DNA of 15,092 bases from a virus: UHGV virus genome UHGV-1737584. One strand, given 5' to 3'. The notes below the pieces were generated by a model. The model searched no databases, was not told the origin of the DNA, and worked only from the letters and a program-made list of their open reading frames with translations. Below, piece after piece: positions 4,207 through 14,137 of this stretch. Positions within the stretch are counted from its first letter, which is position 1. The number at the start of each line of letters is the position of its first letter. A program made the position numbers and the translations under genes.

Positions 4207-4562
4207 AGCACCACGTCCTGTGTGATAGTTATATCCCTGATACGAATGGATATTTTCAACTTATCAAAAGCATCTCCCTCGGCTACTGACAAGCCAGAAA
4301 TCGGTATGTCAGGTAAATCTACCGTCAGTTTTTGCAACAGCATTGCCTCAACCGCAATTTGAACATGCGACAAGTTGGTCGGTTCGTGTTTAAACTGCGG
4401 TAAAACATTGCCCCATGACGGATCTCCGTATACCTCACCCTGATAAGTGTTTAGCCACTCATATAAACGAGCGCCCCAGGCCTCCTCCTGGGACTCATAC
4501 GTTTTTACGCCGGATAACTCCAGCGTCAGCAAAGGATCAATTTCGTTATTGTTGGCCATCAA
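4203..4562 (-). CDS. 119-aa small structural protein, possibly baseplate wedge (gp25/W-like size class)
   Basis: Complete ORF; start overlaps the stop of the Sit-like gene (4559-4562) and its stop overlaps the next start. Assignment by size and synteny only (P1 pmgA by position). Confidence 0.5.
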   Translation of the reverse strand: MMANNNEIDPLLTLELSGVKTYESQEEAWGARLYEWLNTYQGEVYGDPSWGNVLPQFKHEPTNLSHVQIAVEAMLLQKLTVDLPDIPISGLSVAEGDAFDKLKISIRIRDITITQDVVL

Positions 4563-7500
4563 TCAACTCTCGCGTAGTCATTCATCAACGGATCATCAAT
4601 TGACAGTGGTACCGTGCGCATAACGCCCGGCTGAGGCGTGCTGACCTTTACGACAGTTCCCTGGCCTTTCGCCGAGTCTTTGGTGTGCTCTTCAATCCTG
4701 GCAAGCAATGAGGTCATCTGCGCAAACAGCCGCTTCGTTTCACCATCAAGTGAAACGGTATTATCAGCCAACTGCATTGTCGGCTTGGCACCGGAGCCAC
4801 CAAGGTCACTAATAACCTGTCCGTCTATCTGCATACGACCGGTTGGTTGCTGCAAATCGTTGGCGGCAGTCGTCACCTGGGACGTGGAGGCTGGTTCAGG
4901 CGCATTATTTTTCCGCATCCCCGGCGAGTTGCGGAGTTTATCGAATAGTCCATCAATCCCCATTTGTGCGCCGAGCTGGTCAAAGTAACTTGAGTTGTTG
5001 GCCACCGGACGCGCTTCTTCAACTGGCATCGGGGTATCAACATACACATTACCAGCTGCTGTTGCGGTCCCCTTCCCTCGTGCACGTTCTTCTAGCGTTC
5101 CCTGAACGACTTCCCGACGCATCCCCCGGCCATTCATGAATTTGTTGACCAGATCGTTAACGCCAACAGCATTGCCGATTTTGTCGACCAGACCGCCTTT
5201 CTCAAACGGGCTATCACCAGGGGTAAACGCCAAGCCAGGGGTAAACGCCAAGCCAGGGGTAAACGCCAAGCCAGTATACTGATCGATAACGGCGTTATCA
5301 GGCAGTGGTCCCCTCACTCCATATTGCGCCCCACCCTGTGCTCCTGCCCCAGGTGTATAGATTTCACCACCTAAATAGCGAGCACGATGAGTATTGACCT
5401 TGATCGCGTACTCACGGTTTTCCTTCGATAAGTCACCGGTGCCTTTTTTCCACTTATTAATAGTGCCAAACCCAGCGTTATATGCAGTGATGGCCTCGTT
5501 TAAGTCTCCATTGGCTTGCTTCAGATACTTGCTCATGAGAAGAGCCGCAGCTTCTGCCGATTTCACAGGATCAAACGATTCACCTTCAGCTAAGCCAGTC
5601 TCTTCACGAGCAATGCCCGTGAACTGAAACATTCCTAGAGCACCAGTTTGGGATTTTGCGTATGGATTACCACCAGATTCAGTTGCAGCAATCGCGTAAA
5701 GAGTGCCTTCAGGAAGACCATATTTATTCTCTAGTTCAGCAAAATACGGAGCTAACTTATCGAGATTTGCCTTACCTTCAGCGCCAAGGCTTCCGACTTT
5801 TACATCTAAGTTGCCATTATTGTAGGTATCAGCAGCTTTCTGAATGTCATTCCCAGTGCCGGTGGTATTACGCGACGATGATGACGAGCTATTTTGACCA
5901 ATAGCTTTATCAATTTTCTGCAACGCGCGATTGCCCGTTTCTACGGCATTTGCATTGATAATCTGATTGGCAGTTTGTTTAACTGTTTTATTGCTATCTT
6001 TCGCTGTGTCCAGTGCCGCATTTATCACGCGGGTAGCAATATTACTCTGTTTGGCATCGGATTCAGTTTTAGAATTAGACGTCTCCTGGTGGCTATTAAC
6101 CGGAGCTTTTAACTCTGGAGTGATTTCTTTCGCATTAGCCTCGCCGATCGGATTGGGTATTTTTGATACAATCATTGCCGCAGGGGTATTTTTAACGGCA
6201 TCAACCGCTGCATCTAATGCTTTACCGGGTAAATTTTTAACCCCATCCCAAATATTACCAGCCGCCTCTTTAATGTGTTTCCCTGGGTTCTTAATGAAAT
6301 CAATTGCACTATCAATTGCATCACTGAAAACCTGTTTCAGGTTATCGACAGTAAAGAAGTCTTTGATGGCATCCAGCTTTTCAAGCAGCTTATTAGATGT
6401 ATCGCTAAACCATGCTGAAACAGCATCACCAATCTTTGCTGTGTAATCATCGAACTTGGTAGAAATCGTGTCGCCAAGGTTAGAAATATATGTTTCTAAG
6501 TTGGTAATCCCACTATCAATGGCCTGGGCAATACTTTCCGTCGAAAATGATTGCAACATATTGCCGATATCCTCAAATCCAAGTGATTTGAGAACCTCAC
6601 CAATGGCGCTGCTAATACCAGATACAAGCCCCCCCATATCAAGAACATTAGCTAACGTATAAGCGGCTTTTTGCTGGAATGATGGATCTTGTCCTGATTT
6701 AAGCCCAAACGCTCGACGTTGCGCTTCTGTATCATTCCAACCGGTTACCGCATCATAAATACCTCCAGCCACTGTGCCGACCAGGGGAATTGCGCGTAAC
6801 GCCCCTTTACCAACTGCCTTTAATCCAAGTTTACCTGCTGCCCGGGCAGCCAAATCTCCGCCTTCATGGGCGAGAGTCTTCTTGCCACCACCGCGTAGCA
6901 TTCCTACAAGTTTCTTTGCCCCCAGAGCGCCAAAAGCGAGTGCTCCAGCTTTTTTCAGCATGCCACGCCCCATTAACAACGACGCGACGCCACCGGCCCC
7001 CTTCCCTAACAGGCTAAATAATTTGGACAGCAAGCCGCCCTTCTTTTTCCCGGTGTTTTTGGCTATCTGATCAAGGGCGCTGAGAATCTTGTCATTGCCC
7101 TCTTTAATTTCGCTGGTCTGCTCCTGAAGTTCCTGAACCGTCCGTTTTTGGGTGTTAACCTGAACGACATCGGCACTATTTTGCGATTTACGCCTAAAAA
7201 AACCTTTTCTACGGCTGTTATCGTCATTGCCACGAATCACATCGGCAATAGACTTTCTGGCACCATTAAGCGATCCACCAACTTCTTTTGATATCCCGCC
7301 AAGCTCCTTCCCTGCGGCCCACAATGGACCAGCAACGGCATAACCTAACGCATCGACGGCACGAGTCTCTGAAGGGTTACCTATGCCTTCAGCTACTTTT
7401 GACAGTTTTTTTAATAAACCTGATTCAGCATTTAGACGCTCATCATCCTCTTTGCGCCTGTCCTTTTCAGCACGTTCAGCACGGGCATCTTCCGCTGCGG

Positions 7501-7987
7501 CCTTACTCCCTGACTTTCCAATAAAACGACCACGCGCATCGCGTTGGTTTTGGCTTTTTTGCGCACCGTCTTTTTGACCGAACATTTCGCGAGCGTGTTC
7601 GGCTGCTTCGGTCCGTTGCGCCTTTACATCTTCTGTTATAGCCTTCTTGCGTCGTTTTTTACCCTTTCGCGTAGTTGATTTGGCCTGCGGTTCCTGTAGA
7701 GCAACATCCTCCTGAACTACACGAGAAACGTCCCCTAAATTAAGCCGTTTCATTGCCTCAACAATAGGGTCCACTGATGGCGCATTGGCCACAAAGTCTG
7801 GCTGGGAATTTTCGATTGTGCGATTTAATGCCGACACACTGCGAGAGACAGGATCAACTGTAGCAACTCGCCCCCCTTTCAAATCTTCAACGGCTTCCCG
7901 AATACCTGCAAGCTCTTCCAGCTCTTTTGCGCTGGCGGTTTCAACCGTCCTTATCACATCGTCAATGTTGGCGTTTTTTCTTTCCAT
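4559..7987 (-). CDS. sit: Structural injection transglycosylase / tape-measure-like protein, 1142 aa, with soluble lytic transglycosylase (SLT) domain
   Basis: Longest ORF in window. Contains GLPEGTLYAIAATESGGNPYAKSQTGALGMFQFTGIARE (aa ~760-800), the family-1 lytic transglycosylase motif with catalytic Glu-Ser (Glu codon at complement 5678-5680). N-terminal part is K/R/E-rich, followed by a Gly/Ala-rich hydrophobic glycine-zipper segment (aa ~300-420). P1 Sit is about 1140 aa as I recall. Confidence 0.9.
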   Translation of the reverse strand: MERKNANIDDVIRTVETASAKELEELAGIREAVEDLKGGRVATVDPVSRSVSALNRTIENSQPDFVANAPSVDPIVEAMKRLNLGDVSRVVQEDVALQEPQAKSTTRKGKKRRKKAITEDVKAQRTEAAEHAREMFGQKDGAQKSQNQRDARGRFIGKSGSKAAAEDARAERAEKDRRKEDDERLNAESGLLKKLSKVAEGIGNPSETRAVDALGYAVAGPLWAAGKELGGISKEVGGSLNGARKSIADVIRGNDDNSRRKGFFRRKSQNSADVVQVNTQKRTVQELQEQTSEIKEGNDKILSALDQIAKNTGKKKGGLLSKLFSLLGKGAGGVASLLMGRGMLKKAGALAFGALGAKKLVGMLRGGGKKTLAHEGGDLAARAAGKLGLKAVGKGALRAIPLVGTVAGGIYDAVTGWNDTEAQRRAFGLKSGQDPSFQQKAAYTLANVLDMGGLVSGISSAIGEVLKSLGFEDIGNMLQSFSTESIAQAIDSGITNLETYISNLGDTISTKFDDYTAKIGDAVSAWFSDTSNKLLEKLDAIKDFFTVDNLKQVFSDAIDSAIDFIKNPGKHIKEAAGNIWDGVKNLPGKALDAAVDAVKNTPAAMIVSKIPNPIGEANAKEITPELKAPVNSHQETSNSKTESDAKQSNIATRVINAALDTAKDSNKTVKQTANQIINANAVETGNRALQKIDKAIGQNSSSSSSRNTTGTGNDIQKAADTYNNGNLDVKVGSLGAEGKANLDKLAPYFAELENKYGLPEGTLYAIAATESGGNPYAKSQTGALGMFQFTGIAREETGLAEGESFDPVKSAEAAALLMSKYLKQANGDLNEAITAYNAGFGTINKWKKGTGDLSKENREYAIKVNTHRARYLGGEIYTPGAGAQGGAQYGVRGPLPDNAVIDQYTGLAFTPGLAFTPGLAFTPGDSPFEKGGLVDKIGNAVGVNDLVNKFMNGRGMRREVVQGTLEERARGKGTATAAGNVYVDTPMPVEEARPVANNSSYFDQLGAQMGIDGLFDKLRNSPGMRKNNAPEPASTSQVTTAANDLQQPTGRMQIDGQVISDLGGSGAKPTMQLADNTVSLDGETKRLFAQMTSLLARIEEHTKDSAKGQGTVVKVSTPQPGVMRTVPLSIDDPLMNDYARVD
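5217..5274 (-). repeat. Perfect tandem repeat, 3.2 copies of an 18-bp unit (CCAGGGGTAAACGCCAAG), encoding (LAFTPG)x3 in the Sit-like protein
   Basis: Read directly: copies at 5217-5234, 5235-5252, 5253-5270 plus a partial CCAG. In frame; translates to TGLAFTPGLAFTPGLAFTPG just C-terminal of the SLT domain. Confidence 0.95.
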
Positions 7988-11298: not shown

Positions 11299-11565
11299 CC
11301 CGGAAAAACAAAAACCGGCGAGAAGTTACCACGAGAACGGAAAGTAAACAAGAATACTCCCATTGACTTATATCAATTAATCAACTTTTTATAAGCTATC
11401 ACTAACTTATTGTGTATAGCTGAAAAGTCAGAGACAAGTTCACCATCTGCATTATTTCTTAAGTTAATAGTTTATTGCTAACTTAATTCATGTATCGACT
11501 ATTGATAGCCATCTTAAAGTTACAATATCCCTCTGCATTATTTTTCATCACAAATAATATATCTA

Positions 11566-11596
11566 TTGCACGACACTCATCTGCTCTAATAAATTT
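11566..11596 (+). promoter_or_regulatory. Sigma70-like promoter (TTGCAC-17-ATAAAT) overlapped by a C1-operator-like site (ATCTGCTCTAATAAATTT)
   Basis: -35 at 11566-11571, -10 at 11589-11594. The 15-mer TGCTCTAATAAATTT at 11582-11596 matches the P1 C1 operator consensus ATTGCTCTAATAAATTT as I remember it (15/17) and recurs at 13253-13267. Confidence 0.6.
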
Positions 11597-11634
11597 GTAT
11601 TTTTAAGTCGCGAATGCTATCTTTTCGCATCATA

Positions 11635-11663
11635 TTGACCTTTTAATCGTTCAGGCTTATAGT
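11635..11663 (+). promoter_or_regulatory. Near-consensus sigma70 promoter TTGACC-17 nt-TATAGT, candidate constitutive promoter for the c4-icd-ant transcript
   Basis: -35 at 11635-11640, 17-nt spacer, -10 at 11658-11663. Lies ~120 nt upstream of the structured RNA and has no operator-like sequence over it. Confidence 0.6.
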
Positions 11664-11783
11664 TTCGCCGTCGTAGCAAATTCTGCGACCGGGTTTAGCA
11701 GCCTGAATGATTGTGCGGACAGCCGCAGATATCCGATATTGCGGTATTTTTGTGTCCGTAAAACCGCGTTACGCCCAAATTAT

Positions 11784-11860
11784 GGTGGGGCGTGATGGGG
11801 AGGCTTCGGCCTGCTGGTTTCACAATCGCCAGTCTGCTAACCCCGTCACGTCCTGCCACC
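11784..11860 (+). ncRNA. c4: c4-like antisense repressor RNA, ~77 nt, structured
   Basis: Nested stems read from sequence: GGUGG (11784-11788) with CCACC (11856-11860); GUGAUGGGG (11792-11800) with CCCCGUCAC (11841-11849, one G-U); internal GGC-UUCG-GCC tetraloop hairpin (11802-11811). Single-stranded segments are complementary to downstream sites at the icd RBS. The 77-nt span matches the reported length of P1 c4, but I chose the ends knowing that length. Confidence 0.55.
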
Positions 11861-11910
11861 TGTTTAGCAGCGGGTAGCAGGTTGTTAAACCTGATTGTGA
11901 GGCCGTAACT

Positions 11911-12132
11911 ATGGTTAATGCCAATCCTTGCGCACGCCAAGAATTCATCTGGCGTTTCTATTCCTGTAAAAAACACCACTATCACTTCGTCATCGCAGCA
12001 ACAGAAGACGAAGCACGCTCTCAATTGCCTGATGGTCCCTGCATTTTTACTGCCCGTTTTTCAACTAACTCGCGCAATTCACTTAGTTACTGGAACCTCC
12101 CCTTCTCTGCCGACGTTCAGGGGGATTTATGA
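11911..12132 (+). CDS. icd: Small 73-aa protein, translationally coupled to the antirepressor gene (Icd-like)
   Basis: ORF with GAGG 8 nt upstream of its ATG; its TGA overlaps the ant start (ATGA at 12129-12132). The RBS region is complementary to the upstream RNA. The 73-aa length and position match P1 icd as I recall. Confidence 0.6.
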   Translation: MVNANPCARQEFIWRFYSCKKHHYHFVIAATEDEARSQLPDGPCIFTARFSTNSRNSLSYWNLPFSADVQGDL

Positions 12133-13172
12133 AAAAACCTCTCGTCACCCGTAATGAAATAGCCGAAGCGATCGCCCTGCATACAACCTGTATGCCGACA
12201 CGGGAGATCCCCGGCGCAATTGCCAACTATTTCATGATAACCAGACGTTTTTATACCCGAACAGATAAGGCTGTGATCAACAAGCTACTGATAGCCGAGA
12301 TCAGGGATTATTTGATTGAACAAGGACGTCTACGTTACGCAACAGTGGCAGCAGAAATGAGAAAGGAGGCACATAGAATGACCGGTAATAATTTGAATGT
12401 TGAAAAACCAGCACCTGTTGCTTCAGCTACGCCATCACCAGCTGTGAATGTTATCTCCAACACTGGAGACACAATCGACAGCCAGACACTGTTAAAGATG
12501 GTCAATGAAGCTCGTAAGTTATGTGGGGAACCAGAGGTTCGGAACAACAAATTCATCGAAAAAATACTCGACGAATTAGAAGGTGAGGACGGTTACACAA
12601 AAAGTGCAACCGTGCCGCCAGGTGGCGGTACGCCTATGGTTGTCATAACCATGACCTACAAACAAGCCCTGCGAGTCGCCGCGCGCGAGTCAAAAGCGGT
12701 CCGCCGTTCGCTGATCGACAAACTGGAAGAATTACAGCAGGCAAACTCCCCTACCCCATCGATCCCCCAGACATTACCAGAAGCCCTACGCCTGGCTGCC
12801 GAGTTAGCAGAACAGAAAATGCAGTTGGAACAACAGCTGGTGGCCGCAGCCCCTAAAGTCGATTTTGCCGACCGGGTATCAGTGGCCAATGGAATCCTGA
12901 TCGGGAACTTTGCAAAGGTCGTTGGACTTAAGCAAAACGCCCTTTTCTCATGGTTGCGCCAGAATGGCATTCTCATGGCTTTTGGAGCGCGCAAAAACGT
13001 ACCGCGCCAACAGTACATCAACGCGGGGTATTTCACGGTGAAAGAAGTGGTGCTGGATGATGAAAATGGCTACCAGATACGGCTGACGCCCCAATTAACG
13101 GGTAAAGGCCAGCAGTGGTTAACTCGCAAGCTACTTGATGCTGGTTTGTTAAAACCAGTAGCAATAGGTTAA
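12129..13172 (+). CDS. ant1: Antirepressor Ant1, 347 aa, with C-terminal ANT/KilA-C type domain
   Basis: Strong SD AGGGGG upstream of the ATG. C-terminal ~130 aa (LPEALRLAAELAEQ...GKGQQWL...LLDAG) is the phage antirepressor C-terminal domain and is paralogous to the KilA C-terminus in this window. Confidence 0.85.
   Translation: MKKPLVTRNEIAEAIALHTTCMPTREIPGAIANYFMITRRFYTRTDKAVINKLLIAEIRDYLIEQGRLRYATVAAEMRKEAHRMTGNNLNVEKPAPVASATPSPAVNVISNTGDTIDSQTLLKMVNEARKLCGEPEVRNNKFIEKILDELEGEDGYTKSATVPPGGGTPMVVITMTYKQALRVAARESKAVRRSLIDKLEELQQANSPTPSIPQTLPEALRLAAELAEQKMQLEQQLVAAAPKVDFADRVSVANGILIGNFAKVVGLKQNALFSWLRQNGILMAFGARKNVPRQQYINAGYFTVKEVVLDDENGYQIRLTPQLTGKGQQWLTRKLLDAGLLKPVAIG
12378..13172 (+). CDS. 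ant2: Nested in-frame antirepressor Ant2 (264 aa) from an internal start
   Basis: Internal in-frame ATG at 12378-12380 preceded by a consensus SD AAGGAGG at 12364-12370. P1 is known to make Ant1 and Ant2 from in-frame overlapping starts. Confidence 0.6.
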   Translation: MTGNNLNVEKPAPVASATPSPAVNVISNTGDTIDSQTLLKMVNEARKLCGEPEVRNNKFIEKILDELEGEDGYTKSATVPPGGGTPMVVITMTYKQALRVAARESKAVRRSLIDKLEELQQANSPTPSIPQTLPEALRLAAELAEQKMQLEQQLVAAAPKVDFADRVSVANGILIGNFAKVVGLKQNALFSWLRQNGILMAFGARKNVPRQQYINAGYFTVKEVVLDDENGYQIRLTPQLTGKGQQWLTRKLLDAGLLKPVAIG

Positions 13173-13249: not shown

Positions 13250-13267
13250 ATTTGCTCTAATAAATTT
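13250..13267 (+). promoter_or_regulatory. Second C1-operator-like site (ATTTGCTCTAATAAATTT) in the kilA-repL promoter region
   Basis: Same 15-mer TGCTCTAATAAATTT as at 11582-11596, located 70 nt upstream of kilA. A possible -35 TTGCTC (13252-13257) and weak -10 TAAGTG (13275-13280) overlap it. Confidence 0.6.
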
Positions 13268-13336: not shown

Positions 13337-14137
13337 ATGCAACAAACATTCAATGCGGATATGAATATATCAAACCTTCATCAAAATGTCGATCCTTCAA
13401 CCACTCTGCCCGTTATTTGTGGTGTTGAAATTACGACCGACCGCGCTGGCCGTTACAACCTTAATGCTCTACACAGAGCGAGCGGACTCGGTGCCCATAA
13501 AGCGCCAGCTCAATGGCTAAGAACGCTGTCAGCCAAACAGCTCATCGAAGAGCTTGAAAAAGAAACTATGCAGAATTGCATAGTTTCGTTCGAAGGCCGT
13601 GGCGGCGGCACTTTTGCCCATGAATTGCTCGCAGTGGAGTACGCAGGCTGGATTTCTCCCGCGTTTCGGCTGAAGGTAAACCAGACATTTATCGACTATC
13701 GAGCCGGAAGATTACAACCTGCTATTCCGAAGAGCCTCCCAGAAGCTCTCCGTTTGGCTGCTGACCTGGCAGAGCAAAAGCAACGGCTGGAGCAAAAAAT
13801 GCTGATGGATGCACCTAAAGTCGAATTCGCCGAACGCGTTGCTACCGCCAGCGGGGTTCTAATCGGCAACTATGCCAAAGTGCTCGGCCTGGGCCAAAAC
13901 TATCTCTTCACCTGGTTGCGTGATAACGGAATTCTGATCGCAACCGGTGAACGCAGGAACGTCCCCAAACAAGAATACATATCCCGTGGGTATTTCACCC
14001 TTAAAGAAACCGTGATCGATACAAGCAATGGAAGCAGGATTTCTTTCACGACTCGTATAACCGGCAAAGGTCAGCAGTGGCTGATGAAGCGATTGCTTGA
14101 TGCTGGTGTGCTGGTACCTGTCGCGGCAACGCGCTAA
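13337..14137 (+). CDS. kilA: KilA protein, 266 aa: N-terminal KilA-N domain plus C-terminal ANT-type domain
   Basis: SD GGAG 7 nt upstream. N-terminal region (ICGVEITTDRAGRYNLNALHRASG...) has the KilA-N DNA-binding-domain character. C-terminal ~130 aa are paralogous to Ant. The 266-aa length matches P1 KilA as I recall. Confidence 0.8.
   Translation: MQQTFNADMNISNLHQNVDPSTTLPVICGVEITTDRAGRYNLNALHRASGLGAHKAPAQWLRTLSAKQLIEELEKETMQNCIVSFEGRGGGTFAHELLAVEYAGWISPAFRLKVNQTFIDYRAGRLQPAIPKSLPEALRLAADLAEQKQRLEQKMLMDAPKVEFAERVATASGVLIGNYAKVLGLGQNYLFTWLRDNGILIATGERRNVPKQEYISRGYFTLKETVIDTSNGSRISFTTRITGKGQQWLMKRLLDAGVLVPVAATR

Follow-up and report, generated by a model that had tools for sequence, protein, structure and literature searches.

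Which promoters feed the operon that carries the C4 antisense RNA, and which of them does the repressor control? The question arises at positions 11566-11663 of the window, the 15,092-nucleotide stretch of UHGV virus genome UHGV-1737584 analysed here, for which an earlier note had proposed that two promoters in tandem feed the c4 operon, the upstream one controlled by the operator and the downstream one free of it. This tandem architecture is supported, and it is documented in the GenBank record of phage P1. The interval belongs to a P7-type punavirus of the P1 family and constitutes the control region of its immI operon (c4 RNA, icd and ant1/2). We consider it about 80% probable that the region holds a single 17-bp C1 operator together with two sigma-70 promoters in tandem, which lie 40 bp apart and point in the same direction.

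The identity of the locus follows from its similarity to P7 and P1, from Rfam matches to C4 and to the c4-a1b1 motif, and from the presence of icd and ant1 downstream. The stretch of about 1 kb around the interval is 98.3% identical to P7 and 98.8% identical to phage phi456, and identity to P7 stays at 98.3-98.8% over the whole region, the DNA upstream of the operator included. Identity to P1 is about 95% and is found solely from window position 11582 rightward. The operator, c4, icd and ant are all annotated in the records of P7 (AF503408) and P1.

Downstream of the control region, the a1/b1 leader, the C4 antisense RNA, the a2/b2 targets, icd and ant1/2 are met in this order on the plus strand. 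The c4-a1b1 leader RNA motif spans 11657..11709 (Rfam RF03163, 54.6 bits) and includes the leader 5' stem-loop (11670-11689); a1 (TTAGCAG, 11695-11701) and b1 (GATTGTGC, 11709-11716) were transferred from the P1 annotation. The C4 antisense RNA, of P7 specificity, lies at 11778..11863 (Rfam RF01695, 69.6 bits; a misc_RNA in the P7 annotation), with the mature 77-nt RNA transferred from P7 to approximately 11784-11860. Its targets a2 (TTAGCAG, 11863-11869) and b2 (GATTGTGA, 11893-11900) were read from the sequence and aligned to the annotated P1 sites, and the stretch that they delimit (11863..11900) spans the icd ribosome-binding site. The C4 and target specificity of the window is P7-type (a = TTAGCAG, b = GATTGTG) and differs from that of P1 (TTGACAG and GTTAGTG). 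The icd open reading frame (11911..12132) encodes a cell-division inhibitor of 73 aa, named from the annotation of 95-98% identical P7 and P1 DNA, and a Pfam search of its product returned no family. The 347-aa antirepressor encoded by ant1 (12129..13172), annotated as such in P7, carries a Pfam ANT/KilAC domain (E = 1.2e-30), and ant2 has an in-frame start at 12378 inside ant1, with AAGGAGG ahead of its ATG (12363-12380). A 56-aa open reading frame at 11707-11877 (plus strand) is called a hypothetical protein in the phi456 and JL22 annotations, and X15639, an old record, lists it as a c4 CDS; since the frame overlaps with the C4 RNA and the flanks of that RNA, it is probably an over-annotation.

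To place the control elements in a wider context, we scanned IMG/VR with the leader 5' stem-loop and obtained 120 loci, which reduce to 103 distinct upstream regions. We distinguish four locus types. Type A is P7-like, includes this window and has a single operator; type B is P1-like, with sim genes upstream and likewise a single operator; type C is D6-like, with repL directly upstream and no operator; and type D is a second immI-like module, located elsewhere in some punaviruses, with an inverted operator pair. The D6-type loci (phage D6, L003 1047-1270, and IMG/VR loci such as L019 and L031) keep a promoter TTGATC-17-TATATT equivalent to P51b and are devoid of both a C1 operator and P51a; as repL immediately precedes them in the same orientation, regulated input, if any, would need to arrive by read-through. 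The second immI-like c4-icd module was seen in L024, L029, L055, L016, L022, L041, L085, L100, L104, L117 and L134 (MH160767 1-1027), and its bivalent C1 operator is made of two inverted, overlapping sites (ATTGCTCTAATAAATTTGATTTATTAGAGCAAAT).

The C1 operator of the window (Op51, Oc4 or Op(c4); TCTGCTCTAATAAATTT) occupies 11580..11596 on the plus strand and matches 15 of the 17 positions of the asymmetric C1 operator consensus ATTGCTCTAATAAATTT. The same bases are annotated as Op(c4) in P7 and as Oc4 (former Op51) in P1. The window contains two sites with at most three mismatches, where chance would give 0.07. Of the 103 distinct related upstream regions, 48 have a C1 operator, and in each of them it precedes the 5' stem-loop by 90-93 nt. 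The first two operator bases vary among relatives (TC, CC, AC, AA, AG or TT) and positions 3-17 are almost invariant; the homology between P1-type and P7-type genomes breaks exactly at the left edge of the operator (window 11580-11582). A second C1 operator, Op53 (TTTGCTCTAATAAATTT, 13251-13267), overlaps the -10 element (TGcTCTAAT) of PkilA. An operator-like ATTGCCCTCTTTAATTT with four mismatches to the C1 consensus, found at 7094-7110 (plus strand) inside a minus-strand open reading frame (4559-7987), may be due to chance. To the left of Op51, two diverged direct repeats of about 85 bp (11380-11463 and 11456-11549) lie in P7-specific intergenic DNA, each ending in C(A/C)TCTGCATTATTT; Tandem Repeats Finder, run on the intergenic region, found nothing and did not detect them.

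The downstream promoter, P51b (P1c4), maps to 11635..11663 on the plus strand, where the hexamers TTGACC (11635-11640) and TATAGT (11658-11663) are separated by a 17-nt spacer and together match 10 of the 12 consensus positions. It ranks first of 150,570 sigma-70 candidates on both strands of the window in a rough position-weight scan, which uses sigma-70 hexamer frequencies and serves for ranking only. The second-best match is a leftward TCGACA-17-TGnTATATT (13364-13392, minus strand), which corresponds to the P1 antisense promoter PaskilA (P53as). P51b is identical to its P1 counterpart (L002 1554-1582), and the P1 record AF234172 describes the same bases as 'sigma 70 promoter P1c4; corresponds to former P51b'. 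A search for operator-like sequence over P51b found none, the best match there having 7 mismatches in 17 positions, which is the background level. The operator-free TTGACC-17-TATAGT promoter that had been proposed from the letters is thus exactly P51b, the best sigma-70 match of the window, with no operator over it.

An equivalent of P51b, of the form TTGnnn-17/18-TAnnnT and ending 6-7 nt before the stem-loop, is present in 100 of the 103 distinct relatives, and it is found even in GC-rich distant relatives that share no other upstream similarity. With this recurrence at a constant position, P51b is a conserved feature of the whole C4 family, kept at a fixed distance from the leader stem-loop. 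Its RNA would start near 11670, at about the first base of the 5' stem-loop.

Where, then, does the repressor-controlled promoter lie? The earlier note had placed it at TTGCAC (11566-11571), a 17-nt spacer and ATAAAT (11589-11594), that is at 11566..11594 on the plus strand, overlapping the operator and with about 70 bp between the two promoters. Every quoted string is present, the -35 starts of the two pairs are 69 bp apart, and the C1 operator at 11580-11596 is real and does overlap ATAAAT. This pair is not supported as a sigma-70 promoter: it matches the consensus at 3 of 6 and 4 of 6 positions, has T instead of A at -11, scores 1.8 bits and ranks 2681st. Hexamer pairs with at least 7 of 12 matches number 1406 in the window versus 1431 +/- 38 in shuffles, and those with at least 10 of 12 number 2 versus 4.4 +/- 2.2; since these counts are at or below the shuffle expectation, consensus matching alone proves nothing here, and we dropped hexamer counts as support for either promoter. 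The upstream pair is indistinguishable from chance. Its register scores at most 2.4 bits in every locus type, with no conserved -35 element, and it sits 29 bp to the left of P51a, its -35 hexamer falling in P7-specific DNA that is absent from P1.

The proposed assignment could nonetheless be right for one group of phages. In P7-type phages, the C1-controlled promoter might combine the TTGCAC -35 element with a -10 element inside the operator, either ATAAAT or, better, TAAATT (11590-11595, 18-nt spacer), and either replace or accompany P51a; C1 would then cover the -10 element, as at Op53/PkilA, where the operator does so. The hexamers exist in the sequence, TTGCAC is found in 13 of 13 distinct P7-type upstream regions, and the shifted register TTGCAC-18-TAAATT (to 11595), a marginal sigma-70 match of 7.5 bits, ranks 61st, on a par with the established PkilA promoter of the same window. 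As PkilA itself ranks only 65th, the scan cannot exclude weak real promoters and its ranks cannot settle their status. We nevertheless consider this arrangement improbable, because (i) the original register lacks the A at -11 and has the low score and rank given above, (ii) the -35 hexamer lies in DNA that P1 lacks, type D has no comparable -35 element and type B offers only AT-rich weak matches, (iii) in 813R1 and 673R5 TTGCAC sits 4 bp nearer to the operator, which breaks the spacing, and (iv) the P1 record places P51a elsewhere. That the shifted pair acts as a weak extra promoter has, in our estimate, a low probability.

The operator-controlled upstream promoter probably lies at a different location: the P1 record and the comparison of locus types point to TTGTAT-17-TATCTT and not to TTGCAC-17-ATAAAT. 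This promoter, P51a (P2c4), spans 11595..11623 on the plus strand, with the -35 element TTGTAT at 11595-11600, an extended -10 TG at 11615-11616 and the -10 element TATCTT at 11618-11623. Its coordinates come from AF234172, which lists a 'sigma 70 promoter P2c4; corresponds to former P51a', and the window is base-for-base identical to P1 across both P51a (L002 1514-1542) and P51b, so the P1 promoter coordinates transfer directly. The TTG of the P51a -35 element consists of the last two T's of the operator and a G, and the operator therefore overlaps the -35 element and not the -10 element, as it does in the pair that had been proposed; similarly, the annotated offset between P51a and P51b is 40 bp instead of 70 bp. 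P51a matches 7 of 12 consensus positions in addition to the TG and ranks 9th of the 150,570 candidates in the same rough scan. Its RNA would start near 11630.

The comparison of locus types provides a further view of P51a. In types A, B and D alike, the -35 TTG of the best promoter beside the operator combines the final two operator T's with a G; in types A and B this promoter reads TTGTAT-17-TGcTATCTT. P51a is identical in 37 of 37 distinct P1- and P7-type regions, an invariance that is weakly informative since the whole block is at least 95% identical. In type D loci, the P51a register is kept as TTGATT-17-TACCAT or TACTAT within non-homologous DNA, which lends support by analogy. A putative promoter with its -35 element at the right end of the operator is thus retained in types A, B and D, three settings whose upstream or spacer DNA is unrelated. 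These data support the position annotated for the regulated promoter as well as the tandem arrangement itself. A hexamer search by itself picks the wrong upstream promoter, and it is the comparison of locus types that places the regulated promoter at the right edge of the operator.

The experimental standing of P51a depends on how the P1 GenBank entry is worded and on the P1 literature. In AF234172, P2c4 and P1c4 are listed without the word 'predicted', which neighbouring promoters in that record carry. The P7 record annotates the operator and no promoters, as do most related records, and the older GenBank records X15639 and X17512 contain no promoter features. One paper reports that P1vir carries a substitution in the P2c4 region, without giving coordinates (PMC8198154); our comparison of OP279344 with AF234172 revealed no P1vir-type differences, the two being identical across the immI control region.

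One may also ask whether P51a contributes at all. If its activity were negligible, P51b would be the sole working promoter, and the operator, 39 bp upstream of the P51b -35 element, would serve a divergent leftward promoter or C1-mediated looping. The modest consensus match of P51a (7 of 12) is compatible with such a scheme, as are the P1 literature, in which the operon is described as constitutively transcribed from the single promoter P51b, and the D6-type loci, which work without an operator or P51a. A leftward promoter-like TAGATA-17-AATAAT (from 11565 to 11537) ranks 35th, and P1 has a predicted promoter, PsimA, 6 bp from the operator. However, the leftward candidates lie in AT-rich DNA and match no better than chance, and P2c4/P51a is entered in the P1 record as a sigma-70 promoter without being called predicted. 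The operator-promoter geometry, with TTG at the right end of the operator and TAnnnT 17 bp further on, recurs in the non-homologous type D loci, which would be difficult to account for if no promoter were present. We regard a silent P51a as very improbable and retain the tandem arrangement of P51a and P51b.

In this tandem arrangement, the geometry predicts how C1 would act. Bound to 11580-11596, C1 would cover the P51a -35 element and the adjacent upstream DNA and should block polymerase at P51a. P51b, whose -35 element lies 39 bp beyond the operator, should escape. With a start at about 11630, only 5 bp before the P51b -35 element, P51a would share a single polymerase footprint with P51b, and for this reason the two promoters probably cannot be occupied simultaneously.

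In the regulatory scheme of P1, P51b transcribes c4-icd-ant constitutively. In a lysogen, only P51b fires and yields a steady supply of precursor, from which the C4 RNA is cut. C4 pairs with a2/b2 at the icd ribosome-binding site and blocks icd translation, and this block makes transcription terminate prematurely before ant. When C1 is inactive, P51a contributes further transcripts of this operon. This immI scheme was reportedly established in P1 by Heisig in 1989, Citron and Schuster in 1990, Biere in 1992, Heinrich in 1994 and 1995, and Lobocka in 2004. The earlier note had combined constitutive synthesis of the antisense RNA with extra, regulated read-through into icd-ant. Its first half agrees with the P1 literature, in which C4 is made constitutively. 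Its second half requires a correction: both promoters lie upstream of c4, so P51a adds C4 as well as its target, and there is no separate route into icd-ant.

The leader holds a long-range complementarity that the two promoters would include to different extents. Its 5' arm (11644..11657, plus strand) lies within the P51b spacer and forms an inverted repeat (13 nt, 92% complementary, extending over 13-14 bp) with 11700-11713, a segment that runs from the end of a1 into b1. The core of the 5' arm, TTCAGGCT (11650-11657), corresponds to the last 8 nt of the P51b spacer and is the exact complement of AGCCTGAA (11700-11707, between a1 and b1). It is invariant in 36 of 36 distinct sequences of types A-D, which differ among themselves both in the initial 9 nt of the spacer and in the 6-nt discriminator. 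Spacer sequence is normally free to vary, yet this core is unchanged across four otherwise divergent types. The 5' arm is contained only in RNAs that start upstream of P51b. For a transcript from 11630, the prediction (-34.7 kcal/mol, z = -4.6) is a 14-bp helix that would replace the a1 hairpin and cover part of b1; for a transcript from 11670, the predicted fold is that of the Rfam model.

We searched for covariation in the helix between 11644-11657 and 11700-11713 and found none: within the P1/D6 group, the core shows no variation, and the outer parts of the two arms occur in free recombination. Among 42 distant relatives, a complement in the same register occurs only in L076 (TTCCGGGA/TCCCGGAA) and L082 (TCGGGCT/AGCCCGA), and the mean complement score of 5.06 is barely higher than the 4.49 of a control arm. 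Given the lack of covariation and a score barely over the control, the helix is not established, and we treat the complementarity as a lead, not a finding. It is conceivable, though rather unlikely in our view, that the two promoters yield RNAs with different 5' structures, such that C1 status would alter the accessibility of a1 and b1 besides the amount of transcript. If this were true, refolding of the leader could shift the balance between C4 and its target.

Among the closest known systems, the P7 immI region (AF503408) has the operator at the same bases and shows a few point differences (for example 11574 C/A, 11607 G/A and 11665 T/C). P1 immI is collinear from 11582 onward, comprising the operator core, the promoters and their spacing, the leader, c4, icd and ant, and its promoters are identical to those described here. 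It differs in the first two operator bases (AA, versus TC here) and in the DNA to the left of the operator, which is unrelated: this window has an upf50.5-like lipoprotein gene where P1 has the sim genes. The type D module (for example MH160767 1-1027; L024, L029 and L055) resembles the present locus in its C1 operator, which precedes the shared 5' stem-loop by about 93 nt, and in its promoters: TTGATT-17-TACCAT begins at the operator's right end, and a P51b-like TTGATC-17-TATAGT comes about 43 bp further on. It departs from it by its bivalent operator, the non-homologous DNA between operator and P51b, and its place in the genome.

A more distant parallel is the immI region of phage P22, which comprises Pant, the Mnt and Arc repressors and the sar antisense RNA, whose gene lies inside the ant leader on the opposite strand. 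The two loci share the principle of an antirepressor held down by an operator-bound protein repressor together with a small antisense RNA, and they are not known to be related in sequence. Unlike sar, C4 is released from the transcript that also contains its targets, and it works in trans on two short loops.

The Op51-P51a-P51b arrangement is already known: it was elucidated in P1 decades ago, and the GenBank entry of that phage records it. The P7-type copy adds nothing new to it, and the P1 promoter coordinates transfer exactly to P7-type records. For prophages of the P1 family, the tandem promoters would mean a steady production of the C4 antisense RNA, with extra transcription of immI tied to the loss of C1.
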